This document shows, in pieces, positions 26,946 through 40,278 of a DNA stretch of 51,677 nucleotides. Location of the stretch: assembly GCA_052388515.1 (NCBI GenBank), contig JBQTHZ010000133.1:1-51677 (forward strand), given 5' to 3'. Made by a program: the position numbers and the translations under genes. Below the pieces are notes generated by a model. That model did not search any database and was not told where the DNA came from. It worked only from the letters and a program-made list of their open reading frames with translations. This stretch comes from Chloroflexota bacterium. GTDB taxonomy: Bacteria; Chloroflexota; Limnocylindria; QHBO01. The first letter of the stretch is position 1, and every line of letters starts with the position of its first letter.

Positions 26946-27199
26946 AGGACTCCGGATTCGGCAGCTTCCTGGCCGGTGTCGTGATCGGCGGGCTGATCGG
27001 CGCCGCGCTGGGGCTGATCCTGGCCCCGCAGACCGGCGAGGAATTCCGAGAGCACGTCAACGACTTCGTGGAGAACAAGCGCGCCGAGATCGGCGATGCC
27101 GTCAACGAGGGGCGCCAGGCCGCCGAGCAGGCGCGCGCCGAGATGGTCACCGATTACGACGCCCATGCCGGCGCGCGGCCCGAGGGCGCCGCCTCCTGA
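26942..27199 (+). CDS. YtxH domain protein
   Basis: FLAGVVIGGLIGAALGLILAPQTGEEFR signature. Confidence 0.88.
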   Translation: MKDSGFGSFLAGVVIGGLIGAALGLILAPQTGEEFREHVNDFVENKRAEIGDAVNEGRQAAEQARAEMVTDYDAHAGARPEGAAS

Positions 27200-27232
27200 C
27201 TCCCGTCTGAACCCACGACCGCAGATCAGCGC

Positions 27233-27261
27233 ACGAGAGCCGGTGGGTCGCCGGCTCTCGT
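27233..27261. other. GC-rich hairpin upstream of alaS
   Basis: Perfect 11-bp inverted repeat acgagagccgg/ccggctctcgt; no U-tract. Confidence 0.6.
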
Positions 27262-27281
27262 CGTGAACGAAGGATGAACCG

Positions 27282-29906
27282 ATGCAGCCGATGAGCGCCG
27301 CTGAGATCCGCGAGCGTTTCCAGCGCTTCTTCGAGGAGCGCGGTCATACGCGCGTGCCATCGGCGCCGATCCTGGCGAAGGACGATCCGACGCTGCTGTT
27401 CGTGAACTCCGGCATGGCACCCTTCAAGCGCGTCCTCACCGGCGAGGAGAAGCGCGACTACGTTCGCGCGGTCGACGCGCAGCTCTGCCTGCGCGTGGCC
27501 GGCAAGCACAACGACTTCGAGGAGGTCGGTCGCACGCCGCGCCACCAGACCCTGTTCGAGATGCTCGGCAACTGGAGCTTCGGCGACTACTTCAAGCGCG
27601 AGGCGATCCATTGGCACTGGGAGCTGCTGACCGGGGAGTTCGGGATCCCCGCGGATCGCCTGGCGGCGACCGTCTACACCGATGACGACGATGCCCACGC
27701 CGTCTGGGCCGAGGAGATCGGTCTGCCGCCCGATCGCATCGTTCGGTGGGGGAACATCGCCGTCGGAGATGAGAAGAACTTCTGGCGCATGGGCGACACG
27801 GGCCCCTGCGGCCCATGCAGCGAGCTCCACTACGATCGGGGCGAGCACCTGTCGGAAGGTCCGCACTGCATCCCGGACCACTCGGAGACCTGCCCGCGCT
27901 GGCTGGAGGTCGGCAATCTCGTCTTCATGCAGTTCGACCGCGCTGCAGACGGCAGCCTGGCACCGCTGCCGATGCAGAGCGTGGATACCGGGACGGGCCT
28001 GGAGCGGCTGACGTCGGTCATCCAGGATGTCGACTCCAACTACCGGACCGACCTGTTCGTCCCGATCATCGAGCGCCTCGCACAGTTCATCGGTCACGAC
28101 CCCGAGACCGTCGAGAGCGAGCGATTCAGCTACCAGGTGGTCGCCGATCACTCGCGTGCCATGACCTTCCTGCTGGCCGAGGGCGTGACGCCGTCCAACG
28201 AGGGCGCCGGCTACGTGCTGCGCCGCATCATCCGCCGCGCGGTGCGTCACGGACGCCTGCTGGGGATCACGGGGCCGTTCCTGGGTGAAACGTGCGCGGT
28301 GGTGATCGGTCTGATGGGCGAGGCTTACCCGCACGTCGCCGAGCAGCGCGAGACCGTCCTCGGCGCCATCGAGGTGGAGGAGGAGAAATTTGCACGCACG
28401 CTCGAGGCGGGAAGCGCGCGCCTGGACGAGCTGGTGGCCGCCGGCGGGATCATCAGCGGTGCCGATGCGTTCCGCCTGCACGACACGTTCGGCTTTCCGA
28501 TCGACCTGACCGTCGAGGTGGCTGCCGAGCGCGGGGTCAGCGTCGACCGCGCCGGCTTCGATGCGGCGATGGCCGAGCAGCGCGAGCGCTCGCGCGGCGA
28601 GAAGCGCGGCGGCCTGCAGCTGGATCCCGAGGTGGCGGCGCTGCGCAGCGAGTTCATCGGCTACCCGAACGAAACCAGCGCGGACGGTTTGCGCGTCCTT
28701 GCCGCGGTGCCCGGCGAGCCAGCGGCGATCGTGCTCGATCGGACCCCCTTCTACGCGGAGGGTGGCGGGCAGATCGGCGATCGGGGCGAGCTGATCGGGC
28801 CGGGTGGTCGGCTGCGGGTCGACGACACGCAGCGAAGCGGCGACGCGATCGCACACCTCGGCCAGCTGTCCGGCGAGCTGCGCGTCGGGGACGTGGTGCA
28901 CGCCGAGGTCGACGAGGGACGCCGATGGGGCGCGGCGCGCAACCACACCGGCACGCACCTCCTGCATCGGGCTCTGCGCGACGTGCTGGGAGAGCAGGCC
29001 AAGCAGGCCGGATCCTGGGTCGGGCCCGAGGCGCTGCGGTTCGACTTCCCGGCCCAGTCCGCCACGCCGCGGGAGGCGCTGCGCGAGGTGGAGCGGCTCG
29101 TCAACGCGCAGATCCGCCGCAATGCGCCTGTCCATCCAGGGTGGATGAAGATGGAGGACGCGCAGTCGCTCGGCGCCGACATGTTCTTCGGTGAGAGGTA
29201 CCTGCCCGAGTCGGTGCGCGTCGTCCGGGTCGACGGATACTCGAAGGAGCTGTGCGGCGGCACGCACGTGGCGGCCACCGGCCAGATCGGCCAGCTCGTG
29301 ATCACCGGCGAGTCCAGCATCGGCGCCGGCCTGCGCCGCATCGAGGCGGTCACCGGCGAGGCCGCGGCCGACCTGGTCAGCGCGAGGCTGGAGGCGTTGC
29401 GGAGCACGGCCCTCCTGCTCGGTGAGCAGGACGAGAAGGTTCCGCAGCGCGTCGAGGCGCTCCTGGCGCGACTCCGCGAGGCGGAGAGGGCCGCAAGGGC
29501 TCCGCGTGGAACGTCCGCAAGGCTGGATGCGGCAGCTGCGCTGCACGGTGCCCAGGAGGCCGGATCGACGAAGGTGATCGTGCAGGCCTACCCGGAGGCC
29601 GATGCGAACGCCCTGCGCGGTCTCGCCGACGACCTTCGCGGCATGACAGGACGCTTCGTGCTCGTCTCGGCGGCTGGCGCGGATGGCAAGCCATCGATCC
29701 TGGTGGCCGCAAGCCGAGATCTGACCGCGGAGGGCTTCGACGCCGGCGCCGTCGTCCGCGCGGCCGCGCCGCTCATCGGCGGCGGCGGGGGTGGTCGCGC
29801 GGATCTCGCGCAGGCCGGTGGGCGCGATGCGTCACACCTCGACGAAGCGCTCCGCGAAGCGGCGCGGCTCGCACTCGAGTCGCTCCGGCGGATCGAGACG
29901 GCCTGA
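27282..29906 (+). CDS. alaS: alanine--tRNA ligase
   Basis: DPTLLFVNSGM, FEMLGNWSFGDYFK, GPCGPCSE, TPFYAEGGGQ, NHTGTHLLH, ELCGGTHV, GGGGGRADLAQAGG. Confidence 0.98.
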   Translation: MQPMSAAEIRERFQRFFEERGHTRVPSAPILAKDDPTLLFVNSGMAPFKRVLTGEEKRDYVRAVDAQLCLRVAGKHNDFEEVGRTPRHQTLFEMLGNWSFGDYFKREAIHWHWELLTGEFGIPADRLAATVYTDDDDAHAVWAEEIGLPPDRIVRWGNIAVGDEKNFWRMGDTGPCGPCSELHYDRGEHLSEGPHCIPDHSETCPRWLEVGNLVFMQFDRAADGSLAPLPMQSVDTGTGLERLTSVIQDVDSNYRTDLFVPIIERLAQFIGHDPETVESERFSYQVVADHSRAMTFLLAEGVTPSNEGAGYVLRRIIRRAVRHGRLLGITGPFLGETCAVVIGLMGEAYPHVAEQRETVLGAIEVEEEKFARTLEAGSARLDELVAAGGIISGADAFRLHDTFGFPIDLTVEVAAERGVSVDRAGFDAAMAEQRERSRGEKRGGLQLDPEVAALRSEFIGYPNETSADGLRVLAAVPGEPAAIVLDRTPFYAEGGGQIGDRGELIGPGGRLRVDDTQRSGDAIAHLGQLSGELRVGDVVHAEVDEGRRWGAARNHTGTHLLHRALRDVLGEQAKQAGSWVGPEALRFDFPAQSATPREALREVERLVNAQIRRNAPVHPGWMKMEDAQSLGADMFFGERYLPESVRVVRVDGYSKELCGGTHVAATGQIGQLVITGESSIGAGLRRIEAVTGEAAADLVSARLEALRSTALLLGEQDEKVPQRVEALLARLREAERAARAPRGTSARLDAAAALHGAQEAGSTKVIVQAYPEADANALRGLADDLRGMTGRFVLVSAAGADGKPSILVAASRDLTAEGFDAGAVVRAAAPLIGGGGGGRADLAQAGGRDASHLDEALREAARLALESLRRIETA

Positions 29907-29916
29907 CACGACCACC

Positions 29917-31212
29917 GTGACCGGCGTTCAGCGGCTCTGGGGACGCGTTGCGGATCGGCTCCGAGCTTCCGCGCGATCGGGCCGCTCGCCGGCGATCGCC
30001 GCGCTCGACATCGGCACCGAGTTCGCGAAGGCGCTCGTCCTCTCGGTGGAGACCGACGCGGATGGCCGGCTCGTCGGCGTCGTGCGTGGCAGCGGACGGC
30101 AGCGACAGGGCCTCGCGCACATGCAGTCCGGGACCGTGAGCGACATCGATGCCGTGGTGGCCAACTGTCGTGTCGCGATGGACGAAGCACGCGCGATCGC
30201 GGGTGTACGTCCCTCCGCGGCGGTGATCGGCATCGCGGGTGAGCTCGTGAAGGGTGCCACGAGCACGCTGACCATGCGTCGCGATGACCCGCGGGCATCG
30301 CTCGGCGAGCCGGAGCTGGAGCGCATCGTGATGCGCGCCCAGGAGTCCGCGCTGCGCGAGGCCGAGGAGCGGATCCGGTGGGAGTCCGGCATGGATCGGC
30401 TCGACGTACGGCTCGTGCACGCCGCCATCGTGGAGATGACGATCGACGGCTACCCGGTCAGCAATCCGATCGGCTTTACGGGGGCGCAGGTCGAGCTGCA
30501 TCTCTTCAATGCCTTCGCGCCGATGGTCCACCTCGGCGCACTCCAGTCCGTCGCGACCGCGCTCGATCTCGAGCTGCTCGGGGTGATCGCGGAGCCCTAC
30601 GCGGTGGCCACCTGCCTCGACCCGGGCGAGCTGGGCGACGCAGGTGCGGTGTTCGTCGACATCGGCGGCGGGACGACCGATGTCGCGCTCGTCCGAGGCG
30701 GAGGCATCGCCGGCACCAAGATGCTGGCCCTCGGCGGGCGCGCCTTCACGAAGGGCCTGGCGGAGCGGCTGGGCATCGCCTTCGCCGATGCCGAGGCGGC
30801 CAAGCTCTCCGTCGTCTCGGGCGACCGCTCGGAGGTTTCGGATGCGCTGCTCGAGGACGCGCGCATCTGGCGCTCGGGCATCGAGCTGATGATCGGTGAT
30901 CTTGCGGGCGGGGAGCTCCTGCCGGGACGCATCCTGCTCTGCGGGGGCGGGGCCGACCTGCCGCAGGTGCGGCTCGTGCTCGACGAGGAGGGCTGGTGGG
31001 ATCGCCTGCCCTTCGCGCGACGGCCGAAGGTCCGGGCGCTGGCGCCCGACGAGGTGATCGGCCTGCGCGATGCGACCGGCACGCTCGGCACGCTCGGCAC
31101 GCGGCAGGATGTGACGCCGATGGCACTCGCCCACCAGGCGCTGATCCTCGATGCCGGCGCATCCGCCGTCGACCGCGCCATGCGCGGTGTCGTGCGCGAG
31201 ATGGCGCTGTGA
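29917..31212 (+). CDS. FtsA-like actin-family ATPase (non-canonical context)
   Basis: Phosphate-1 ALDIGT, connect-1 AEPYAVA, phosphate-2 VDIGGGTTD, AEAAK, adenosine LCGGGA; IDGYPVSNPIG FtsA 1C-type insert. Confidence 0.85.
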   Translation: MTGVQRLWGRVADRLRASARSGRSPAIAALDIGTEFAKALVLSVETDADGRLVGVVRGSGRQRQGLAHMQSGTVSDIDAVVANCRVAMDEARAIAGVRPSAAVIGIAGELVKGATSTLTMRRDDPRASLGEPELERIVMRAQESALREAEERIRWESGMDRLDVRLVHAAIVEMTIDGYPVSNPIGFTGAQVELHLFNAFAPMVHLGALQSVATALDLELLGVIAEPYAVATCLDPGELGDAGAVFVDIGGGTTDVALVRGGGIAGTKMLALGGRAFTKGLAERLGIAFADAEAAKLSVVSGDRSEVSDALLEDARIWRSGIELMIGDLAGGELLPGRILLCGGGADLPQVRLVLDEEGWWDRLPFARRPKVRALAPDEVIGLRDATGTLGTLGTRQDVTPMALAHQALILDAGASAVDRAMRGVVREMAL

Positions 31213-32816
31213 GCGAGGAGACGTTGCTCCTCTACCTGGAGGCCGATGACGAGGTGACCTCGGTCGTCCGCCGCCTGCGCGTGGCCGATGCCGAGCGGGT
31301 CATCCTCGTGGTGCCCGGCCGCTCACGCGCCACCTCGAGTGTCGTTGCCCTTCGCCTTCTCGCACGGGTCGGGGAGGAAGCTGGACGACGCGTGGCCGTG
31401 GTGGGCGACGTGCTCACGCGATCCCTCGCATCCGAGGCAGGCCTCGAGGCGTTCGTCACGGTCGGCGACGCTCGCAACGCGGCGCCGGCCGAGGTCGGTG
31501 CGCATGGGAAGGGCGCGTCGATTCACGTGGTGCGCGGCAACGTGTCCGAGGAGACTGCGCCCATCGCAGCCGCGATCCAGCCCGCGCCGGCGCGGACCGA
31601 CCCGGACACCGAGACGCGGCCGGTCGCCGTTCCACGCGCCGCGGAACGGAGAGATCGGCCGGTGGATGCCAGCCGCCGATCCGGTCGTGCCCTCCCGCTG
31701 GCATTCATCCTCGGCGGTCTCGCCGCACTCCTGCTGGCTGCCGCTGCAGTCGTCGCCGTCGTCGTGCTGCCGGCGGCCACCGTGACCATCGAGCCGGCGG
31801 GTGAGCCGCTCGGGCCGGTCCCGTACGAGATCCGCCTCGACGACCCGGAGCGGCTGACCGGTACCGTCGAGGCCGAGGCTCCGGTGACGGCAACCGGGAC
31901 GTATCCGATCCAGGCCGCAGCGACCGGCACGGTGGTGCTCCGCAACTTCAACACGGTCGATGTGGCAGTCGGCGCCGGTACGCTCGTCGCCGCCGGTGAG
32001 CAGGCGTTCGAGACGGTGGCCGAGATCGTCGTCCCGGCTGGGACGCTGACGGGCGCTGGAACGATCCAGGCCGGCGAGGAGGCGGTCGGGGTGACTGCGG
32101 CGGCGGTCGGACCAGCGGCCAACGTCGCCGCCGATGCCATCGACACGATCCTGACCCAGAACGTCGCCGCCCGCCTGCGTGGATTCCCGAACAACACGTC
32201 GCGACTCGTCCTCAATCCGGAAGCCACGGTTGGTGGTGTCGACACGACCGGCCCGGAGATCACGCAGGCCGACGTGGATGCGGCGCGAACCGCCCTGGGC
32301 GAGGCGCTCGAGGTGGCCTTGACCGAAGCGCTCGAAGGCAGCGGCGAGGCGATCTTCGCCGATCCGACGGAGACCGCAGAGCCGGTCGTCGATGGGCTCG
32401 AGGGCCTCGTCGAAACGCGCGACCAGGAGACGGCACGCATCAGCGGCTCTCTCGCCTACGATCGGCTCGTCGTCGACCGTGACGAGGTCATGCCACTGGC
32501 GGAGGCCCGCCTCGTGGACGACGCGAACGTCGTGCCATCCGGTCACGAGCTCCTGCCGGATGCAACCCGGGTGACCATCGGGGATGCTCGGCGCGACGGC
32601 GACGCCATCGTGGTGAGCGTCAGCGTCACCGGCGCTTCGACGGCTGTCATCGATCGGGACGAGGTCATCGACCGCGTGCGGGGGCAAGGCCTCGAGACGG
32701 CCCATGACGCGCTCGTCGAGCTGGGGGAGCCGAGGATCGAGCTCTGGCCGGGGTGGGTCGCATCGGTGCCGGAGCTCGACTGGCGGATCGACGTCCAGGT
32801 CGTGACCCGACGGTGA
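31209..32816 (+). CDS. bitopic membrane protein with baseplate J/gp47-like extracytoplasmic domain
   Basis: N-terminal alpha/beta domain (LYLEADDEVTSVVRRL), linker, one TM, then ATGTVVLRN..VGAGT..FET..VTAAAVGPAANVAADAI..VLNPEATVGG as in baseplate J proteins; GTG overlaps upstream stop. Confidence 0.75.
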   Translation: MSEETLLLYLEADDEVTSVVRRLRVADAERVILVVPGRSRATSSVVALRLLARVGEEAGRRVAVVGDVLTRSLASEAGLEAFVTVGDARNAAPAEVGAHGKGASIHVVRGNVSEETAPIAAAIQPAPARTDPDTETRPVAVPRAAERRDRPVDASRRSGRALPLAFILGGLAALLLAAAAVVAVVVLPAATVTIEPAGEPLGPVPYEIRLDDPERLTGTVEAEAPVTATGTYPIQAAATGTVVLRNFNTVDVAVGAGTLVAAGEQAFETVAEIVVPAGTLTGAGTIQAGEEAVGVTAAAVGPAANVAADAIDTILTQNVAARLRGFPNNTSRLVLNPEATVGGVDTTGPEITQADVDAARTALGEALEVALTEALEGSGEAIFADPTETAEPVVDGLEGLVETRDQETARISGSLAYDRLVVDRDEVMPLAEARLVDDANVVPSGHELLPDATRVTIGDARRDGDAIVVSVSVTGASTAVIDRDEVIDRVRGQGLETAHDALVELGEPRIELWPGWVASVPELDWRIDVQVVTRR

Positions 32817-33250
32817 GCAGGTTGATCGGCCTCGACCATGGCAGCCGGCGCATCGGCGTTGCGGTGGGCGACACCGAAACCGGCATGGCCTTCGCGCGCC
32901 CCGCCATCCGGCGGCGCAGGCTGCTCGCCGACCTCGCGGCGATCGAGGCGCTCATCACCTCGGAGGGGGCCGAGACCGTCGTGATCGGTTTGCCGATCAA
33001 CATGGACGGCAGCGAGGGCGACCAGGCAGCATCTGCCCGTCACTTCGGCGAGCGGTTGGTCGCCCGAGGCATGGCAATTGCCTATGAGGACGAGCGTCTC
33101 AGCTCGTGGGAGGCGGGGGAGCAGCTGTCGGAGGCCGGCAGGCGACCGCGGCGCGAGAGCGGCGAGCTGGACTCGACGGCCGCCCGCGTGATCCTGCAAC
33201 AATATCTCGATGCCCGCCGTTGGACGGGACCGCCTGAGGAGACTGAATGA
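32813..33250 (+). CDS. ruvX: YqgF/RuvX pre-16S rRNA nuclease / Holliday junction resolvase-like
   Basis: IGLDHGSRRIGVAVGD, VVIGLP, DERLSS, LDSTAARVILQQYL. Confidence 0.93.
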   Translation: MSRLIGLDHGSRRIGVAVGDTETGMAFARPAIRRRRLLADLAAIEALITSEGAETVVIGLPINMDGSEGDQAASARHFGERLVARGMAIAYEDERLSSWEAGEQLSEAGRRPRRESGELDSTAARVILQQYLDARRWTGPPEETE

Positions 33251-34623
33251 CCCGACGCCCCGCACCAATGGGTGAGTACGAGGAGCGACGCAACGCCCGC
33301 ATCCGCCAGCTGCGTGAGCAGCGCGAGGGACCGGTGCGTCGTCGACGTCGGGTGGAGCCGCTGCTGCTGATCATGTGGATCGCGGGCACGATCGCGCTCC
33401 TCGGCATCCTCATCGTGCTCGGGTTCAACGTCTTCTTTGCTCCGCGCGTGATGGCCTGGGTCGAGGAGAATCCCGGCGCCATCGAACATGGGCTGGTCGA
33501 GGACTTCGTGCAGTGGTATCGCCCCGGGGTGCTCGCCGACACGCCCGCGAGCGACGAGCAGCGGCGCGTCACCGTGAACGTCGAGACCGGCGCAACGGAC
33601 ACCTCGATCGGCCAGCTCCTCCACGACGAGGGGATCATCGGCAGCCAGATCGCGTTCCAGTACGCCGTCATCAATGCCGGGCGCGAGGGGACGCTTGCTG
33701 CCGGCGTGTATGACCTCTTTCCGACCATGACGCCGTCCGAGATCGTCGCCACCCTCCAGGGCCAACCGTTCGGCGAGGTCACCAGCGTGACCCTGCGGGA
33801 AGGGCTTCGCATCGAGGAGATCGTGGCCACCTTCGCCGCCAGCGAGATGACGATGAACATCGAGGAGTTCGCCTCCCTGCTCCAGGCGCCCCCGGCCGAC
33901 CTGCTGAACCAGTACGACTTCCTTGCCGATCTGCCTGCCGGCAGATCGCTGGAGGGCTACATCGCGCCGGAGACGATCGAGTACCAGGTCGGTGCCGATG
34001 CCATCGAGGTCGTGCGGGGGCTGCTCGACCAGTTCCAGGCGTCGCTGACCGACCAGATCATCGCCGGCATCGACGCGAAGGGCCTGACCCTGGACGAGGC
34101 GATCATCATCGCCAGCATCGTGGAGCGCGAGGCGGTCATCGACGAGGAACGGCCGCTCATCGCCGCCGTCTACACCAAGCGCTTCCTGGAGCCGGAGAAC
34201 CCGCAGACGGTCGGCCAGCTCAATGCCGATCCGACGCTCCAGTACGGGTTGACGACCGGCGAGCAGCGACCCGAGGGCCATCCGCTGCTGGGCGAGGGCG
34301 AGGGAGCCACGCTGCCCGCCGACGAGTGGGGCTCGATCGAGTGGTGGCCGCAGCTGCAGACCGGCGGAGCCGAGGTTGCGCTCGAGGAGTTCCTGCTCGG
34401 GTTCCAGACCTACACCCAGGCCGGGCTGCCGCCGATGCCGATCGCCGCACCGCGCATCGGCTCGCTCGAGGCGGTCGCCAGCGCACCGATCGACGACGGC
34501 TTCCTGTTCTTCGTGGCCGGCTGCCCGGACGGCACCCGGGACGGCTCCCACTACTTCGCCACCACCCTCGATGAGCACAACGCCAACATCGCGCGCGCCA
34601 ACGGGGAGTGCGCGGGCCAGTGA
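33247..34623 (+). CDS. mltG: endolytic transglycosylase MltG
   Basis: N-terminal TM, LAAGVY, VTLREGL, LEGYIAPETI, IIASIVERE, LNADPTLQY, TYTQAGLPPMPI, LFFVA. Confidence 0.92.
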   Translation: MTRRPAPMGEYEERRNARIRQLREQREGPVRRRRRVEPLLLIMWIAGTIALLGILIVLGFNVFFAPRVMAWVEENPGAIEHGLVEDFVQWYRPGVLADTPASDEQRRVTVNVETGATDTSIGQLLHDEGIIGSQIAFQYAVINAGREGTLAAGVYDLFPTMTPSEIVATLQGQPFGEVTSVTLREGLRIEEIVATFAASEMTMNIEEFASLLQAPPADLLNQYDFLADLPAGRSLEGYIAPETIEYQVGADAIEVVRGLLDQFQASLTDQIIAGIDAKGLTLDEAIIIASIVEREAVIDEERPLIAAVYTKRFLEPENPQTVGQLNADPTLQYGLTTGEQRPEGHPLLGEGEGATLPADEWGSIEWWPQLQTGGAEVALEEFLLGFQTYTQAGLPPMPIAAPRIGSLEAVASAPIDDGFLFFVAGCPDGTRDGSHYFATTLDEHNANIARANGECAGQ

Positions 34624-35717
34624 CCGATGCGCGGCTCTCAGCGTTGCGAGGGCTGCTCGGCGAGCACGCGCTCGATGGAATCCTGCTGAGCCGCAGCGCG
34701 AACAAGCGCTACTTCAGCGGCTTCCGGCTCGGGGATGCCGAGGGTCCGACATCGGGGTTCGCGGGCACGCTGCTGGTGACCCGCGAGGCGAGCCTCATCC
34801 TGGCCGACAGCCGGTACACGGAGCAGGCGGCCAACGAGACGTCCGGCTGGGAGATCATCGCGACCACGGGGCCGATCGAGGAGGAGCTGCCGCCCCTCCT
34901 CCTGAGCCACGAGATCACCGCACTCGGCATGGAGGCGGCCGTCGTCACCCACGCCGATTGGTCGGCGCTGGGGAAGGCGGCAGCCGGCGTCGAGCTGCAC
35001 GCGATCGACGACGAGCTGGTCCCGCTCCGCATCCTCAAGACGCCGGAGGAAGTCGACGCCATCGGTCGGGCGTGCGCGTTGACCGATGCCTGCTTCGTCC
35101 ATCTCTCCGAGTTCGTGCGGGTCGGCATGACCTAACGCGCGGTCGCGCTCGAGCGCGAGCGCTGGTTCCGCACCAACGGCGCGGAGGGCCTCGCCTTCGA
35201 GCCGATCGTCCTCGCGGGGCCGCGTGCTGCGATGCCGCACGGCCGCCCGTCCGAGGTTCGGATCGAGAGCGGCAACGTGCTCCTCATCGATTTCGGGTGC
35301 ATCGTGGACGGCTATCGGTCCGACATGACCCGCACGCTGTTCGTGGGCGCTGTGCCGGACGAAGTCCGTCGCCACCACGATGCTGTCCGCGAGGCGCAGC
35401 AGGCGGCGATGGCGGCGATCCGTGTCGGCGTCAACGGCCAGGAGCTGGATGCCATCGCACGTCGCCGGATCGAGGCCGATGGGGTCGAGCCCTATGGCCA
35501 CGGCCTGGGGCACGGGATCGGCCTGGAGACCCATGAGCCGCCACGGCTGCGCGCATCGGAGGCGTTCACGCTGGAAGCCGGGATGGTGTTCAGCGTGGAG
35601 CCGGGCATCTACCTCCCCGGCGTGACCGGCATCCGGATCGAGGACATCGTCGCGCTCCAGCCCTCCGGCCCGCGGCTCCTCACGAACTCACCGCGCGAGG
35701 CCCTCGTCGTCGGCTGA
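34620..35717 (+). pseudogene. Xaa-Pro aminopeptidase (M24B) with in-frame TAA at 35133-35135
   Basis: Both ORF halves share one frame; DSRY, LRILKT, PHG, DFG..YRSDMTRT, HGLGHGIGLETHE, SVEPGIY, IRIEDIV; adjacent to efp. Confidence 0.85.
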
Positions 35718-35813
35718 CGGGTCGCGTTTCCTGTCTCCTGTTCGCCTCACGAAGCGCATGCCCTGCCGTATCCTGAGCGTCGCACCGCATCGGTCCATCA
35801 AGGGGAGCAGCGA

Positions 35814-36374
35814 TTGATCAGCACCGGCGACGTCAAGAAGGGCGTCATCATCGAGCTCGACGGACAGCTCATGAAGGTCCTCGACTGGAGCCACATCAAG
35901 ATGGCACGAGGATCCGCGCAGGTCCGAATGAAGCTCCAGAACGTGCGCAGGGGCGACATCGTTGAGCGGACGTTCCAGGCCGGCACTCGCTGGCCGCGCG
36001 CTCGCGTCGAGCAGCGCCGGGTGCAGTACCTGTACTCGGACGGCGACGTCTACCACTTCATGGACAGCGAGACGTACGACCAGTTCGCGGTCAACGCCGC
36101 CATGCTGGGTGACGATGCGCGCTACCTCGTTGAGAACACGGACGTCTTCGTCAGCTCCCACGAGAGTGAGATCCTGGGGGTCGACCTCCCGGTCACGGTT
36201 GATCTCGAGGTGGCGCAGACCGATCCCGGCTTTGCGGGTGATACCGCCACCGGTGCGAAGAAGGCGGCGACCCTCCAGACCGGCCTCGTCGTCCAGGTGC
36301 CGCTGTTCGTCAACGAGGGCGACCTCCTGCGCATCGACACCCGCACCGGCGAGTACGTCACCCGCGTCCAGTAG
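35814..36374 (+). CDS. efp: elongation factor P
   Basis: QYLYSDG, FMDSETYDQ, PGFAGDTATG, KAATLQTG, VPLFVNEGD, IDTRTGEYVTR; TTG start with AAGGGGAG RBS. Confidence 0.96.
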   Translation: MISTGDVKKGVIIELDGQLMKVLDWSHIKMARGSAQVRMKLQNVRRGDIVERTFQAGTRWPRARVEQRRVQYLYSDGDVYHFMDSETYDQFAVNAAMLGDDARYLVENTDVFVSSHESEILGVDLPVTVDLEVAQTDPGFAGDTATGAKKAATLQTGLVVQVPLFVNEGDLLRIDTRTGEYVTRVQ

Positions 36375-36420
36375 GGACCGGGTTGATGGGTATTCGGAAC
36401 GACATCGGTGACGCATAGGC

Positions 36421-37719
36421 ATGGCAGACCAACGGTCCCTGTGGGACCAGCCTGACGAGCAGCCACCGGCAGTGCCGGCGCCTGACCAGCCGGCCCGCGC
36501 CACGCCTCGCATCCTGCGGGTCACCGACCTCAACCGACGGGTGCGAAGCCTCCTCGACGCCGATGCCATCCTGGCGGACGTGTGGGTCGAAGGCGAGGTC
36601 AGCCAGCCGTCGTTCCCGCCGTCGGGCCACTGCTTCTTCACGCTCAAGGATGCGAACAGCCAGGTGCGAGCCGCGCTCTTTCGCGAGGAGCTCACGCGCG
36701 CCGGAATGCGGCCCACCCACGGCATGAATGTCATCATCCACGGTCGTGTTCGCGGATACGAGCCGCAGGGCGTCTATCAACTCTACGTCGACACCATCAC
36801 GGCGGCCGGGGCCGGCGACCTCCACGCGCGCTACGAGGCCCTGCGCACGGAGCTCGCGGCAGCGGGCCTCTTCGAAGACGCTCGGAAACGGCCCATTCCC
36901 CGCTGGCCGAGGCGGATCGGCGTGGTCACGTCGCCGGTGGGAGCGGTCTGGCGCGACATCAACAACGTCCTCCGCCGCCGCTATCCGTTGGCCGAGCTCG
37001 TGCTCAGTGCGAGCGTCGTGCAGGGCACGACGGCTGCGCCGGCGATCGTGCGCGCGCTCCAGCGGCTGTATGCCCAACCCGACCTCGACACGATCATCCT
37101 TGCCCGCGGCGGCGGGTCGCTCGAGGATCTCTGGAGCTTCAATGACGAACGCGTTGTGCGGGCCGTGGCCGATTCCCCGGTCCCGATGATCGTGGGCGTC
37201 GGGCACGAGTCGGACGTCACGCTCGCCGACTTCGCGGCGGACCTGCGCGCCCCCACACCCAGCGCTGCCGCCGAGCTGGCCACGCCGGATGCGGCGCAGC
37301 TGGCGACCGTGGTCGGCCGGCTGCGAGAGCGCGCCACGGCCGCGCTCCTTGGCCGAGCGGTCGAGCGTCGCGCCTTTCTCGACGCGGAGCGGCGCGCGCT
37401 CACGGGACTGGCACCCGATATCGATGCGGCGCGCCAACGGTCGTCGGACCTTCTCGATCGCGCCACACGGGCGCTCAACGAGCGGCTGGCGCGCCGGCGC
37501 ATGGTCGTCGAGTCCGCCCTCGCCACGCTGCGTACGCTGTCGCCGACCGCCACCCTGGAGCGCGGATATGCCGTGGCTCGCACCGCCGACGGCCGCATCC
37601 TTCACGATGCAACCGGCATCACCGCGGGAGAAGCACTGCAGGTGATCGTGGCCCGCGGTACCGTGGAGACCCGAGTCGAGCGTACCCGCGCCGATGGGAC
37701 CGAGGAGCTTCTCTCATGA
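36421..37719 (+). CDS. xseA: exodeoxyribonuclease VII large subunit
   Basis: VWVEGEVS, SGHCFFTLKD, IGVVTSPVGA, ARGGGSLEDLWSFN, VGHESD, APTPSAAAE, TLERGY. Confidence 0.96.
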   Translation: MADQRSLWDQPDEQPPAVPAPDQPARATPRILRVTDLNRRVRSLLDADAILADVWVEGEVSQPSFPPSGHCFFTLKDANSQVRAALFREELTRAGMRPTHGMNVIIHGRVRGYEPQGVYQLYVDTITAAGAGDLHARYEALRTELAAAGLFEDARKRPIPRWPRRIGVVTSPVGAVWRDINNVLRRRYPLAELVLSASVVQGTTAAPAIVRALQRLYAQPDLDTIILARGGGSLEDLWSFNDERVVRAVADSPVPMIVGVGHESDVTLADFAADLRAPTPSAAAELATPDAAQLATVVGRLRERATAALLGRAVERRAFLDAERRALTGLAPDIDAARQRSSDLLDRATRALNERLARRRMVVESALATLRTLSPTATLERGYAVARTADGRILHDATGITAGEALQVIVARGTVETRVERTRADGTEELLS

Positions 37720-37982
37720 TCGACGACGCCCGCTTCGACGTTCTGACCGACGAGGAGCTTGCGCGACGGCCGTTCGACGAGCTGGTGGTTGCGCTTCAGC
37801 AGACCGTCCAGCGCCTCGAGGGCGGCAGTGTCGGGCTCGAGGAGAGCATCAAGCTCTACAAGCAGGGCCTTCGACTCCACGCCGCCTGTGACACGCGACT
37901 GCGCGAGGCTGAGCTCACCATCACCGAGCTCGGACGGCGCGGCGTGACCGGCGCCGAACCCGGAGACGCCGCCAGCGAATGA
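37716..37982 (+). CDS. xseB: exodeoxyribonuclease VII small subunit
   Basis: FDELVVALQQTVQRLEGG, LEESIKLYKQG, LREAE; overlaps xseA. Confidence 0.92.
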   Translation: MIDDARFDVLTDEELARRPFDELVVALQQTVQRLEGGSVGLEESIKLYKQGLRLHAACDTRLREAELTITELGRRGVTGAEPGDAASE

Positions 37983-38122
37983 AGCGGAGCACGCGGGACG
38001 TGCACATCGGTTCCACGCACGTATCGGCTCTGCCGGGACGCAGCGATGTCACGTCTTCGCCAGGTCGCTCGTCTGAACGGCGGCGGCATCGGCCCTATAC
38101 TTTCGTGCGACCCCAGGAGGGC

Positions 38123-40093
38123 ATGTATTCCTTGACTCTGCTCGAGACCATCCGCGAGCCGTCACAGCTGCACGGCATGACGCCGGAGCAGCTCGAAACC
38201 CTGGCCGCCGAGCTCCGCGAGAAGATGATCCGCACCGTTCACCAGACGGGCGGACACCTGGCGAGCTCGCTGGGGGCGGTCGAGATCACGCTCGCGCTGC
38301 ACCGTACGATGAGCTCGCCACGTGATCGGATCGTGTGGGACACCGGCCACCAGGCGTACGCACACAAGCTCCTGACGAACCGATGGGACCGGTTCGACAC
38401 CCTGCGCCAGCTCGACGGCATCGGCGGCTTTCCACGCCGCAGCGAGAGCGAGCACGACGTTTTTGACGGCGGCCACGCCGGCACCGGCGTCAGCATCGGG
38501 GTGGGCCTGGCGGCGGCTCGAGACATTCGCCCGCGGTCGAGCCCGGCGCGCCGGCAGCGCATCGCCGTCTGCGCGGGGGACGCGGCGATCGGGTCCGGCC
38601 TGACGATGGAAGCCCTCAACCACCTGGGTCACACGAAGCACCCACTGCTGATCGTGCTGAACGACAACGAGATGAGCATCAGCCCGTCGGTCGGCGGCCT
38701 CTCCACGCGGCTCAACAAGATGCGTCTGTCGCGCGCGTACCAGGACACGAAGTCCGCCACCGTCAAGGCGCTGCCGCGTGTTCCGGTGATCGGCAAGCCG
38801 GCGTTCGACCTGCTCGCATGGGCGAAAGAGGGATTCAAGCGCAGCTGGGCCAAGGTCGGCTTCTTCGAGGACATCGGCATCACCTACATCGGCGTCCTCG
38901 ATGGCCACAACCTCGCCGAGCTCGAGGCGGCATTCGAAGCTGCGTTCCAGCTCCGCGGCCCGGTCGTCGTTCACGTGAAGACAATCAAGGGCAAGGGATA
39001 TGCACCGGCCGAGGAGGACTCGATGAGCTTCCACGGCGCGAGCCTGCCGCCGATCGATCTGTGCCTCATCGATCCGACGGAGGAGCCGCTGCCCGCGGAG
39101 GGCAGGCCGAAGCGGAAGCCGAAGACCTACACGCAGACCTTCGTCGAAGAGCTCGTTCGGCTGGGTGAGGCCGACGAGCGGATCGCCGCCATCACGGCGG
39201 GCATGCCGACCGGCACGGGCCTCACGCGCTTCGCCGAGCACTTCCCGGCGCGCTTCCACGACGTCGGGATCGCCGAGCAGCACGCCGTCACCATGGCGGC
39301 CGGCCTGGCACTGGCCGGCATGCGTCCGGTTGTCGCCCTGTACTCCACGTTCAGCCAGCGAGCCTACGACGGCCTCGTCCATGACATCTGCCAGAACGAG
39401 CTTCCCGTTGTCCTCGGTCTTGACCGATCGGGCCTGGTCGGCGAGGACGGCACCTCTCACCAGGGCATGTTCATGCTGCCTGGCATGCGATCGTTGCCGA
39501 ACCTGGCCGTCGCCTCACCGAAGGACGAGCAGGAGCTGCGCGACCTCGTCGTCACCGCGCTCAGCCTCGATGGGCCCGTTGCGCTCCTCTATCCCCGCGA
39601 CGCGGGCGAGGACCTCGCGGATCGCGACGGCGTCGTGCTGGAACCGGGGCGAGGCGAGGTGCTGCGCACCGGCGACGACCTGCTGCTGGTCGGGTTCGGG
39701 CCCATCGTCCAGCGGCTGGTGCGCGTCGCTGCAGAGCTGGAGGCTGATGGTCTGGCTGCCACCGTCATCAACGCGCGCTGGGCGAAGCCGCTCGACGAGA
39801 CGCTGATCGCCGAGCACGCCTCAGGCAAGCGGCTCGTCGTCACCGCGGAGGAGTCGGCGGCCATGGGTGGATTCGGCGACGGCGTGCTGGACGCGTTGAA
39901 CCGGGCCGGCATCCACGTCCCCCTTCACAAGATCGCGCTCGCCGATGGATTCGTGCATCACGGCGCCGTCGACGACCTGCGACGTCAGCAGAGGATCGAT
40001 GCGCCGGGCATCCTGGCCCAGGTGCGCGAGGCCCTCGGCCTTGGGCGCCGCGTCGCGCCAAAGCGCCGCTCGAAGGTCTCCGCCGCGTCATAG
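38123..40093 (+). CDS. dxs: 1-deoxy-D-xylulose-5-phosphate synthase
   Basis: GGHLASSLG, WDTGHQAYAHK, LNDNEMSIS, KGKGY, GIAEQH, YSTF, GEDGTSHQG; AGGAGG RBS and TATACT box upstream. Confidence 0.96.
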   Translation: MYSLTLLETIREPSQLHGMTPEQLETLAAELREKMIRTVHQTGGHLASSLGAVEITLALHRTMSSPRDRIVWDTGHQAYAHKLLTNRWDRFDTLRQLDGIGGFPRRSESEHDVFDGGHAGTGVSIGVGLAAARDIRPRSSPARRQRIAVCAGDAAIGSGLTMEALNHLGHTKHPLLIVLNDNEMSISPSVGGLSTRLNKMRLSRAYQDTKSATVKALPRVPVIGKPAFDLLAWAKEGFKRSWAKVGFFEDIGITYIGVLDGHNLAELEAAFEAAFQLRGPVVVHVKTIKGKGYAPAEEDSMSFHGASLPPIDLCLIDPTEEPLPAEGRPKRKPKTYTQTFVEELVRLGEADERIAAITAGMPTGTGLTRFAEHFPARFHDVGIAEQHAVTMAAGLALAGMRPVVALYSTFSQRAYDGLVHDICQNELPVVLGLDRSGLVGEDGTSHQGMFMLPGMRSLPNLAVASPKDEQELRDLVVTALSLDGPVALLYPRDAGEDLADRDGVVLEPGRGEVLRTGDDLLLVGFGPIVQRLVRVAAELEADGLAATVINARWAKPLDETLIAEHASGKRLVVTAEESAAMGGFGDGVLDALNRAGIHVPLHKIALADGFVHHGAVDDLRRQQRIDAPGILAQVREALGLGRRVAPKRRSKVSAAS

Positions 40094-40278
40094 CGACCGG
40101 TTCGTCGTCGTGGTGTGGCTGGAGCTCGGTGCACGCGTGATCGTGCGGGCCCGCTCGGTTCTCGGCGCCGCTCAGCGGCGCAGACTGGAGCGCGAAGGCA
40201 CGTGCAGGCCCCGCGGGTCGTGGTGAATCAGCCTCGCTGAGCGGCGATCCGAGAGGTTGAACCAAGCGCCGCATCCTA

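Follow-up and report, generated by a model that had tools for sequence, protein, structure and literature searches.

The window analyzed here is a 51,677-nucleotide stretch of DNA from a Candidatus Limnocylindria bacterium (Chloroflexota). Between alaS and the ruvX–mltG pair lie two genes, encoding an FtsA-like actin-fold ATPase and a bitopic membrane protein, hereafter the partner. The features of the locus are as follows:

27282..29906, + strand: alaS (alanyl-tRNA synthetase), an 874-residue ORF, upstream flank of the cassette
29917..31212, + strand: FtsA-like actin-fold ATPase, 431 residues, GTG start at 29917
29923..29979, + strand: N-terminal basic amphipathic helix of the ATPase, residues 3–21, a helix in the model at low pLDDT
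31165..31200, + strand: C-terminal amphipathic helix of the ATPase, residues 417–428
31209..32816, + strand: partner, bitopic membrane protein, 535 residues, GTG start at 31209
31209..31484, + strand: cytoplasmic alpha/beta N-domain of the partner, residues 1–92, pLDDT ~90, predicted ATPase docking site
31497..31688, + strand: disordered linker of the partner, approximately residues 97–160, pLDDT below 50 at 97–163
31689..31769, + strand: single TM helix of the partner, approximately residues 161–187 (164–186 in the model)
31902..32252, + strand: baseplate J/gp47-type beta-barrel of the partner, residues 232–348
32253..32813, + strand: further ectodomain modules of the partner, residues 349–535, pLDDT ~90
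32813..33250, + strand: ruvX (YqgF family), PF03652 E 1.8e-36, TIGR00250 102 bits, above its cut-off
33247..34623, + strand: mltG (YceG-like endolytic transglycosylase), 458 residues, PF02618 E 6.9e-56, TIGR00247 122.9 bits, above cut-off
34608..35717, + strand: M24 Xaa-Pro peptidase gene, Creatinase_N and Peptidase_M24 halves in a single reading frame

The name alaS derives from the ORF reading and the conserved position rather than from a family scan. From the ATPase onward, the genes run directly into one another: the ATPase stop and the partner start overlap in a GTGA, as do partner and ruvX, and ruvX and mltG overlap in an ATGA. The peptidase gene has two possible starts, at 34608 or at GTG 34620, the latter giving a GTGA overlap with mltG. 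The chain of 4-nt overlaps from the ATPase through partner, ruvX, and mltG to the peptidase, as described in the first-pass annotation, agrees with these coordinates, its last link holding with the GTG 34620 start. At its N-terminus, the translation of mltG contains a hydrophobic stretch (LLLIMWIAGTIALLGILIVLGF), which we read as a TM segment. The M24 peptidase gene itself is broken by an in-frame TAA at 35133–35135, a codon at which six of six relatives have Glu.

An FtsA-like ATPase separate from the canonical FtsA

With TIGR01174 and PF14450 (with the SHS2 1C subdomain) as the reference for the FtsA family, the ATPase matches PF14450 at E 1.7e-13 and scores 97.6 bits (E 7.6e-28) against TIGR01174, under the cut-off of 175.85. 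Its structure model (pLDDT 83.8, pTM 0.83) shows an actin fold that includes the inserted subdomain of the FtsA/PilM type. S. aureus FtsA is the best fold match (Z 37.1, 344 residues aligned), E. coli FtsA superposes over 350 residues (Z 36.2, rmsd 2.6), and PilM comes next among the folds (Z 32.0 and 31.9); in a sequence search of the PDB, FtsA is found at E 8.1e-15 versus 2.8e-4 for PilM. The initial reading of this protein as an FtsA-like actin-fold ATPase is borne out by both the family and the fold matches. The nucleotide-binding motifs are kept, with the columns of phosphate-1 (D31, G33, T34), phosphate-2 (D248, G250–T254, D255), and GGG 343–345 all invariant across 26 aligned sequences.

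The highest amphipathic moments of the protein lie at its two termini, in helices modeled at low pLDDT. The N-terminal helix, which is extra relative to FtsA, has a hydrophobic moment of 0.83, where the protein as a whole averages 0.29 (sd 0.17), and a basic/aromatic N-terminus is present in 26 of 26 aligned family members, in line with the amphipathic character first ascribed to it. The C-terminal helix, a feature shared with FtsA, reaches 0.91, the top of the protein (the corresponding helix of the canonical FtsA in this genome has 0.70), and its consensus LDxAMRRVxRAMKx is kept phylum-wide, R423 being shared by at least 90% of sequences. Because this conserved amphipathic helix is present, the earlier statement that the ATPase has no obvious long C-terminal membrane-targeting tail was wrong.

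Elsewhere in the same genome, a canonical FtsA (414.5 bits) adjoins an FtsQ-like ORF, labeled from its ORF reading and not by family scan; a different contig carries FtsZ (432.5 bits), and two mreB genes are also present. The ATPase is only 24% identical to this FtsA, and in a quick tree, the canonical FtsA groups apart from it with an SH-aLRT of 96. Canonical FtsA is over its cut-off in 96 of 101 sampled Chloroflexota genomes and coexists with the ATPase orthologue wherever checked. The ATPase is a paralogue separate from the cell's canonical FtsA. It had been called an orphan, with neither ftsQ nor ftsZ as neighbor, and a phylogeny and a look for a separate ftsA–ftsZ had been suggested; the canonical ftsQ–ftsA and ftsZ do lie elsewhere, the canonical FtsA forms its own group in the tree, and with both FtsA and FtsZ present, the ATPase is not the sole FtsA.

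A bitopic partner with a baseplate-like ectodomain

In the partner (model pLDDT 83.8), an alpha/beta domain on the cytoplasmic side leads through a disordered linker into a single TM helix, beyond which lies an ectodomain of baseplate J/gp47 fold; this architecture is constant across 30 aligned sequences spanning the phylum. Relatives are numerous (484 in one search and 1796 representative clusters at E <= 0.001 in another). The N-domain, in which four strands alternate with helices in the model, is the most conserved part of the protein and resembles STAS-like domains only weakly in fold (Z 7.7), while the linker varies in both length and sequence in two alignments. Kyte-Doolittle windows of 19 residues exceed 1.9 at start positions 160–179 only, consistent with a single TM segment, and arginines preceding this helix point to an N-in orientation.

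The window's partner has no match in Pfam, but among 14 distant relatives, 11 are recognized by PF04865 (Baseplate_J). Using VIA-align, its barrel superposes on 8kea_b with Z 13.7 and rmsd 2.0 (97 residues aligned, 27% identity), on 9g8s_C with Z 13.5, and on the phage Mu baseplate protein 9ki1_H with Z 11.9. Foldseek extends the likeness to whole wedge proteins, over ~350 columns (E 1.7e-7). Residues 232–535 align whole-chain at high rmsd, so that the ectodomain's domains match those of wedge proteins but are arranged differently. The C-terminus carries a WPxWV...P...R motif with conserved columns W513, P514, W516, P521, and R526. The first-pass description of a single-pass protein with a baseplate-J-like outer domain is upheld by the one TM segment, the barrel superposition, and the PF04865 matches of relatives.

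Conservation of the cassette and a predicted complex

The ATPase immediately precedes the partner in all 80 Limnocylindria loci. It is preceded by alaS in 72, the remaining 8 beginning inside the ATPase gene, and ruvX follows the partner in 69, the other 11 running out at the contig end. The order alaS–ATPase–partner–ruvX–mltG is kept in 15/15 additional loci of the class and in 11/20 loci from other Chloroflexota families, chosen by partner matches. In 20 of 20 genomes chosen by ATPase matches and missed by the partner search, the partner is found immediately downstream of the ATPase, with one showing only its N-domain before the contig end. Of 401 sampled Chloroflexota genomes, 120 encode an ATPase orthologue (E <= 1e-40), in single copy bar one gene split over two contigs, and every examined locus holding one has the partner adjacent. 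The position of the cassette within alaS–ruvX–mltG is fixed over at least a dozen families of the phylum. Both genes are jointly missing in 4/4 examined same-class genomes, where alaS is directly followed by ruvX–mltG. ATPase and partner behave as one cassette, and the pairing, whose conservation had been put forward for checking by co-occurrence and synteny, is conserved by adjacency and by joint loss. For the suggested presence of similar pairs in Patescibacteria, look-alike clusters from Candidatus Saccharimonadota in a protein atlas offer a lead only. Full-text literature searches did not find a description of the pair.

Five loci in other Chloroflexota families have the partner without the ATPase; there it lies either between alaS and ruvX or immediately in front of ruvX. 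When four of these genomes and one related genome were searched with the ATPase profile, the best matches reached only 52.8–73.2 bits, and in one of them, the best match coincided with canonical ftsA. The partner can hence work without the ATPase and is not strictly dependent on it.

Complex prediction for the two proteins gave a score of 0.65 (0.65, 0.67, and 0.65 in three runs), compared with 0.00 for the best of three controls. Among 80 solved complexes, 58 reach a mark of 0.65, as do 2 of 110 mismatched pairs; these counts hold only roughly here because the prediction was run on our own alignments. The runs share at least 94% of contacts, with partner pLDDT of at least 83. Predicted contacts at partner residues 15–21, 40–54, and 69–73 hit its conserved DDE(I/V)T and SR..(T)S motifs, and the contact columns on the ATPase side (M269, G274, R275, F277, T278) are invariant family-wide. 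These partner motifs are degenerate in 4/4 aligned partners from ATPase-less lineages, within a comparison of few, related sequences (seven with an orthologous ATPase, four without, and two with a weak ATPase-like neighbor). The controlled prediction speaks for an ATPase bound to the cytoplasmic domain of the partner, a coupling that the first-pass annotation had proposed.

A possible membrane-spanning scaffold and its alternatives

From the observed gene structure, folds, paralogy, cassette behavior, and distribution, together with the predicted binding and interface, we see about an even chance that the cassette encodes an uncharacterized membrane-spanning scaffold, with the ATPase docked on the partner N-domain, coupled to the outer domain, and having an envelope role. 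The ATPase, with all its nucleotide-binding motifs kept, would probably be held at the inner face of the membrane by its amphipathic end helices. The surface matching FtsA subdomain 2B would be its docking site for the partner's folded N-domain in the cytoplasm. The partner would span the membrane once and, as we picture it, place its multi-domain ectodomain, a homologue of contractile-tail baseplate J/gp47 wedge proteins, in the wall space, these bacteria having a single membrane. By analogy with MreB–RodZ, FtsA–FtsN, and PilM–PilN, the nucleotide or polymer state of the ATPase could be linked with where the outer domain sits or how it oligomerizes; membrane attachment, polymerization, and the envelope role are the parts that we infer.

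Such a scaffold would probably act at the cell envelope, and its translational coupling to ruvX–mltG would make envelope growth or remodeling the most likely field of action. Gene order is the one thing that would tie the cassette to MltG and peptidoglycan, and against this tie, alaS–ruvX–mltG also stands together without the pair. As FtsA, FtsZ, and two MreB are already encoded in the genome, there is also no obvious gap for a further scaffold. The arrangement follows the logic of MreB–RodZ, in which a membrane actin homologue is tied to a single-pass protein and acts with cell-wall enzymes; RodZ, like the partner, joins a folded cytoplasmic domain through a linker and a TM helix to an outer domain. 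The cytoplasmic domain of RodZ is a helix-turn-helix, however, whereas that of the partner is a small alpha/beta domain with weak STAS-like matches, and the ATPase is FtsA-like, scoring only 22 bits against TIGR00904 in a genome with two true MreB.

Alternatively, the two proteins could form an accessory divisome pair, in which the ATPase would either tether FtsZ as a second anchor or regulate FtsA, and the partner would be a division-site membrane protein functionally analogous to FtsN or FtsQ. FtsA is the closest family by sequence and by fold, the MltG family model NF007619 is titled "cell division protein YceG," and the predicted partner-binding surface falls where FtsA binds the FtsZ tail, a correspondence that we assume from alignment offsets and domain boundaries. 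Yet a partner occupying subdomain 2B would take up that very site, the cassette is outside the ftsQ–ftsA–ftsZ cluster, and both the subthreshold FtsA score and the separate grouping of canonical FtsA speak against it; we regard this pair as unlikely. Still less probable are two independent housekeeping genes that share an operon without binding one another. Operons commonly mix unrelated functions, here alaS with ruvX, and some lineages keep the partner alone, but joint presence and absence within the class, direct adjacency in every examined locus with an ATPase orthologue, a complex prediction well over its controls, and contact motifs kept only where the ATPase is present all argue against this reading.

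More doubtful again is a platform on which a pilus, competence, or secretion machine would be built, resembling PilM–PilN or GspL–GspM. PilM-type ATPases are also served by bitopic partners, an FtsA/PilM-fold protein sitting on their cytoplasmic end as predicted here, PilM is the second-best fold, and look-alike clusters in a protein atlas, a lead only, often carry PF11104 (PilM_2). Against it, TIGR01175 (pilM) gives the ATPase 22.8 bits versus a cut-off of 133, and no PilM exceeds its cut-off in the window's genome or in any of 101 sampled Chloroflexota genomes. PilN has a short conserved N-terminal peptide and a small outer domain; in the partner, a folded N-terminal domain of 92 residues is predicted to meet the ATPase on its 2B side, and the ectodomain has an unrelated fold. 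Neither the ORFs read at 27000–40100 nor the cassette neighbors in relatives include pilus or secretion genes.

The closest structures to the ectodomain all come from phage, pyocin-type, or injection-system baseplate wedge proteins (PF04865, the baseplate J/gp47/T4 gp6 type of contractile tails; barrel Z 11–14, rmsd ~2 Å), which could make the partner a leftover of a prophage or contractile injection system and its adjacency to the ATPase meaningless. Neither protein matches PHROGs tail or baseplate families, the sole PHROGs match being a weak one of the ATPase to "partition protein" (E 0.0035), and PADLOC matches neither. The neighborhood has no genes for a sheath, a tube, or other baseplate parts, and unlike wedge proteins, the partner carries a TM helix and a cytoplasmic domain fused into the same chain. 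Together with the phylum-wide fixed housekeeping position, these fused parts and missing tail genes bring the remnant reading close to refutation, and we give it next to no weight. The same barrel (PF21110, which matches weakly in partner relatives) also occurs in a non-phage, membrane-anchored cell-surface protein, GlxA of Streptomyces lividans (Z 12.1); GlxA is a copper oxidase by its entry titles, a catalytic domain that the partner does not share.

The ATPase-partner gene pair and its operon

The ATPase, FtsA-like in fold and with its nucleotide-site motifs intact, and its partner, a single-pass protein with a baseplate-wedge ectodomain, form a conserved cassette. Their genes are part of a tightly packed run on the + strand, extending from 27282 to 35717, in which the following open reading frames (ORFs) were read:

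27282–29906, + strand: alaS
29917–31212, + strand: ATPase, 431 aa, GTG start
31209–32816, + strand: partner, 535 aa, GTG start
32813–33250, + strand: ruvX, passing family cut-offs
33247–34623, + strand: mltG, passing family cut-offs
34608 or 34620 to 35717, + strand: M24 Xaa-Pro peptidase, both halves passing family cut-offs

From the ATPase to mltG, consecutive genes share 4-nt overlaps (GTGA at the ATPase/partner and partner/ruvX junctions, ATGA at ruvX/mltG), and the alternative GTG start of the peptidase at 34620 would give the same overlap with mltG. No terminator-like site occurs within 27100–35700, the sole one on the + strand being located after the peptidase. The G+C content of the window is ~70%. 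The ruvX product matches RuvX/YqgF (PF03652) at 125.9 bits (cut-off 29.2) and TIGR00250 at 102 bits (cut-off 43.25), and the mltG product matches MltG/YceG (PF02618) at 190.2 bits (cut-off 32.4) and TIGR00247 at 122.9 bits (cut-off 103.4). The peptidase gene contains an in-frame TAA at 35133–35135, at a position occupied by glutamate in six of six relatives (GMT-E-R), so that the codon reflects a nonsense mutation or else a fault in the assembly.

In all 80 Limnocylindria loci collected, the ATPase gene is directly 5' of the partner gene; alaS precedes the ATPase in 72 (the other eight begin inside the ATPase gene), and ruvX follows the partner in 69 (the other 11 stop at a contig end). A further 15 loci from the class were compared, and all 15 likewise keep the order alaS-ATPase-partner-ruvX. 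Among 20 loci from other families picked by their partner gene, 11 (including L136, from the unpublished genome G344) have an orthologous ATPase, at 39–54% identity, between alaS and the partner. Two more have a weak ATPase-like gene at this position (27% and 21% identity), another has there a candidate ORF whose start looks actin-like, five (L117, L118, L119, L128, and L130) have the partner directly 5' of ruvX with no ATPase, and the last is a second partner-like gene in another context. Conversely, 20 of 20 ATPase-positive genomes picked because the partner search had missed them carry a partner gene directly 3' of the ATPase, matching both the N- and C-part partner profiles; the one exception is a locus truncated behind the N-domain. 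Neither gene is present in four genomes of the same class, including two from the window's own family, and here alaS is followed immediately by ruvX-mltG-peptidase-efp. Given this conserved adjacency and joint absence, the pair acts as a two-gene cassette that has been inserted into, or lost from, a conserved core operon. The pairing that the first-pass annotation had put forward for a synteny check is thereby borne out.

In four of the five genomes with an ATPase-less partner and one related genome, the ATPase profile finds at best a partial match (52.8–73.2 bits); in genome G026, it coincides with the canonical ftsA. The two weak ATPase-like genes and the actin-like candidate (L125:5353-6651, L131:5763-7070, and L134:8711-9799) are very divergent ORFs that take the place of the ATPase 5' of partner-like genes in three further families. 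A search for fused forms among longer proteins returned 12, three of which were read. Two of these, P0416 and P0420, were rejected as ATPase-partner (Rosetta-stone) fusions, since both go out of frame before the junction and are frameshift artefacts; judging by the Pfam domains assigned to them, the other long proteins mostly appear to join alaS or ruvX parts.

Wherever the source names them, the close relatives are Candidatus Limnocylindria (Chloroflexota). Among the best 120 matches, with the window's own entry excluded, identity is 81–91% for the ATPase and 51–87% for the partner; phylum-wide, the corresponding ranges are 42–57% versus 20–32%. Judged by these identities, the ATPase is much the better conserved of the two. 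An exhaustive profile-free search with the partner found 1796 representative clusters at E ≤ 0.001. Across 401 sampled Chloroflexota genomes, the ATPase profile matches 120 at E ≤ 1e-40, with one copy per genome bar one gene split over two contigs, and the partner profile matches at least 111, a floor set by a stricter first look. By coded family, the ATPase is present in 14/16 (f1), 22/23 (f2), 17/17 (f8), 7/8 (f18), 3/3 (f22), 12/12 (f23), 26/28 (f24), and 5/5 (f27) genomes, and the profile search found it in 0/24 (f10), 0/25 (f14), 0/25 (f21), and 0/12 (f17). These tallies take in four unpublished genomes (G038, G173, G272, and G344), without which they shift by a few counts at most.

The 80 loci retained after scanning the genome collection are without exception Limnocylindria-like. 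Seven of them (L010, L026, L045, L061, L068, L077, and L078) are titled Steroidobacteraceae, Binatia, Angelobacter, or Dormiibacterota and carry Limnocylindria-like alaS-cassette sequence; the four such genomes that were checked measure 1.8–2.5 Mb, have an ATPase orthologue at 638–651 bits, and look like mislabelled bins. In a protein atlas, both proteins have look-alike clusters in Candidatus Saccharimonadota; those of the ATPase extend to Bacillota and Peregrinibacteriota. As a lead, these clusters agree with the similar pairs that the first-pass annotation mentioned for Patescibacteria.

The ATPase and the canonical actin homologues

The ATPase matches the Pfam FtsA family (PF14450) at E 1.7e-13 and reaches 97.6 bits on the ftsA profile TIGR01174 (cut-off 175.85), covering positions 2–252 of 371; its scores on the pilM (TIGR01175) and mreB (TIGR00904) profiles are 22.8 bits (cut-off 133) and 22 bits (cut-off 365.75). 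In a sequence search of solved structures, FtsA ranks top (E 8.1e-15), followed by PilM (2.8e-4). A model built on a 26-sequence phylum-wide alignment (pLDDT 83.8, pTM 0.83) gives Z 37.1 to Staphylococcus aureus FtsA (3wqt_A; 344/370 residues aligned) and Z 36.2 to Escherichia coli FtsA (7q6d_A; rmsd 2.6, 350/383 aligned), with PilM ranking below both (Z 32.0). Because the model superposes on FtsA and then on PilM, the ATPase has an FtsA/PilM-type actin fold with an inserted 1C (SHS2) subdomain, a feature that PilM shares. The nucleotide-site columns D31, G33, T34; D248, G250, G251, G252, T253, T254, D255; and G343, G344, G345 are invariant in 26 of 26 sequences.

The two highest helical hydrophobic moments of the ATPase (11-residue windows) lie at its termini, at 0.91 (residues 417–427) and 0.83 (residues 6–16), compared with a mean of 0.29 (sd 0.17) for the protein and 0.70 for the C-terminal helix of the genome's own FtsA. 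The amphipathic N terminus noted by the first-pass annotation was recovered. Its statement that no long C-terminal membrane-targeting tail is obvious calls for correction: an amphipathic C-terminal helix is kept phylum-wide, with the consensus LDxAMRRVxRAMKx. One 791-aa singleton, P0422, combines a full-length, in-frame ATPase of the cassette family with hydrophobic segments and the domain of a Ser/Thr protein kinase; it may be a natural fusion hinting at phosphorylation control or a gene-calling artefact.

Could the ATPase simply be the FtsA of this cell? It shares with FtsA the actin fold and the 1C insert and differs from it by its sub-cut-off score and its locus. The source genome (2.69 Mb, 186 contigs, 92.6% complete) encodes a separate canonical FtsA (414.5 bits) on contig C76, directly 3' of an ORF labelled FtsQ-like from reading the ORF rather than from a family scan, and an FtsZ (432.5 bits) on contig C58, as the first-pass annotation had asked to be checked. 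The ATPase is 24% identical to this FtsA over 306 residues, and its gene, between alaS and ruvX, is located away from ftsQ, ftsA, and ftsZ rather than in a division cluster. Together, the separate FtsA, the low identity, and the genomic place rule out that the ATPase is the canonical FtsA. Over a wider sample, canonical FtsA exceeds its cut-off in 96 of 101 genomes, cassette carriers among them.

Two true MreB proteins (482.5 and 481.8 bits) are encoded apart from the cassette. These paralogues, both over the family cut-off, lie at C27:24271-25254 and C85:1908-2873, the former within a 511-aa open frame, so that this protein may be extended at its N terminus or its frame may be called too long. 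A quick maximum-likelihood tree was computed from 49 rows (26 cassette ATPases, 17 canonical FtsA, 2 MreB, and 4 PilM-like). Each of these groups is set apart by a single branch, with SH-aLRT support of 96 for canonical FtsA and only 70 for the cassette ATPases, and with no settled deep order among the four groups. A distinct long-branch group in this tree is formed by 485–494-aa ORFs at L157–L159 (G096, G021, and G033, genomes of 1.4–1.5 Mb), whose match to the PilM model is confined to its first half, at 77–82 bits, below cut-off.

The partner ectodomain and the predicted interface

A model of the partner built from 28 relatives (pLDDT 83.8) has the following architecture:

residues 1–92: four-stranded alpha/beta domain (model)
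residues 97–163: disordered linker (pLDDT <50)
residues 164–186: one long hydrophobic helix (model)
beyond this helix: beta-rich region, then two alpha/beta modules (model)

Kyte-Doolittle windows above 1.9 start at positions 160–179 only. On the window's partner protein, Pfam gives no match at E ≤ 0.01, Baseplate_J (PF04865) included; the gathering threshold of this family (21.1 bits) is passed by 11 of 14 full-length relatives at 31–38% identity, with 28.8–42.8 bits. Residues 232–348 of the model superpose on the wedge barrel of cyanophage A-1(L) (8kea_b; Z 13.7, rmsd 2.0, 97 residues aligned, 27% identity), with similar values for the baseplate barrels of phiCD508 (Z 13.5), diffocin (12.8), and phage Mu (11.9), and for the Streptomyces GlxA barrel (Z 12.1). 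With Foldseek, the partner model matches a 386-residue wedge protein at E 1.7e-7 over 348 columns; a different arrangement of the domains keeps whole-chain TM-scores to wedge proteins low. In the model, the ectodomain shows the wedge-protein fold, comprising the barrel plus flanking domains, in line with the baseplate-J-like outer domain proposed from the sequence alone. For the N-domain, similarity to STAS-type and other small alpha/beta folds is middling (Z up to 7.7), and we do not take this to show membership.

Complex prediction was run with the full ATPase (ATPase-family alignment A2) and partner residues 1–95 (partner-family alignment A3). Three runs scored 0.65, 0.67, and 0.65, and all three controls 0.00; in calibration, 58 of 80 solved complexes and 2 of 110 mismatched pairs attained the mark, figures that apply only roughly here, as the alignments are our own. 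The runs agree in at least 94% of contacts, with partner pLDDT of at least 83. The models support binding of the ATPase to the cytoplasmic N-domain of the partner, a pairing that the first-pass annotation had suggested for a multimer check. Predicted contacts involve ATPase residues 268–283 and 313–328, plus 71, 109, and 155–158, including the invariant columns M269, G274, R275, F277, and T278, and partner residues 15–21, 40–54, and 69–73, falling on the most conserved motifs of the family (D13, D14, E15, T17; S39, R40, S44). From FtsA alignment offsets and what we take to be the FtsA domain boundaries, the ATPase contact surface would correspond to subdomain 2B, the site at which FtsA binds the FtsZ tail.

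In a comparison of 13 N-domain sequences, few and related, the seven partners that occur with an orthologous ATPase retain a (D/E)(D/E)E(I/V/L)(T/P) motif, whose last residue is T in six of them, and for the most part S/T-R/K as well; four of four partners from ATPase-less lineages have lost T17 and the S39-R40 pair. At the ATPase-less loci L117, L118, L128, and L130, the N-domain is kept and the predicted contact motifs are degenerate, and the L119 partner has no recognizable N-domain. Here, the partner may act by itself or together with a different protein.

A putative role at the cell envelope

The bacterial actin homologues FtsA, MreB, and PilM organize division, elongation, and pili via bitopic partners. 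The pair described here is alike in logic to MreB-RodZ, FtsA-FtsN, and PilM-PilN and is a member of none: the ATPase fails the FtsA, PilM, and MreB cut-offs, and the cytoplasmic domain of the partner is of a kind other than an HTH or a short peptide. The ATPase would be held on the membrane by its amphipathic ends, may polymerize like FtsA, PilM, and MreB, and is predicted from the complex models to dock directly on the partner's cytoplasmic domain. The partner could then convey the state of the ATPase across the membrane to a wall-side structure. Envelope growth or remodelling is the putative target, because translational coupling ties the cassette to mltG within a core operon. Against this target, alaS-ruvX-mltG also stands without the pair, and the partner is found without this ATPase in some families.

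Other readings were weighed alongside an envelope module. An accessory divisome pair would suit the FtsA-type fold and the predicted use of the FtsZ-tail site, and has against it a locus outside the division cluster. For a pilus-type platform, the model's likeness to PilM stands beside the finding that no PilM exceeds its cut-off in the source genome and that the ATPase gene is flanked by alaS on one side and by the partner, ruvX, and mltG on the other, with no pilN or pilO beside it. A phage remnant, a very unlikely reading, would suit the wedge fold of the partner, which, unlike the baseplate of a contractile tail or injection system, has no neighbouring tail genes: sheath, tube, spike, and other wedge genes are absent among the ORFs read in 27000–40100 and in related loci. 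As searches with both proteins gave no tail family in PHROGs and no defence family in PADLOC, a phage or defence origin was set aside. The two genes might also be unrelated neighbours, a reading at odds with their conserved adjacency and joint absence.

Extending the envelope reading, it is conceivable, if doubtful, that the pair is a further unrecognized actin-family system of single-membrane bacteria, Chloroflexota-wide and possibly present in Saccharimonadota, other Patescibacteria, and Bacillota. Its extracellular arm would be a domesticated baseplate wedge protein, and an inner, nucleotide-driven FtsA-like polymer would order wedge rings or arrays within the wall and so, together with MltG, guide or gate the remodelling of peptidoglycan. 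More generally, a conserved actin-homologue/bitopic pair in a core operon, without assigned function and present in ~30% of sampled Chloroflexota genomes, points to unstudied envelope biology in a phylum abundant in soil and freshwater. The pair would also clearly exemplify a baseplate fold of phage tails in cellular housekeeping, outside injection machines, with transfer possible in either direction. Since specific residues are named by the predicted interface, the hypothesis is open to direct test with two small recombinant proteins.

In the parts of the full-text literature that we could consult, we found no paper on the ATPase-partner pair and no known actin partner with a baseplate-J ectodomain. 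In the sources, the two proteins are named only 'cell division FtsA domain-containing protein', 'cell division protein FtsA', 'rod shape-determining protein', 'hypothetical protein', or 'baseplate J/gp47 family protein'.
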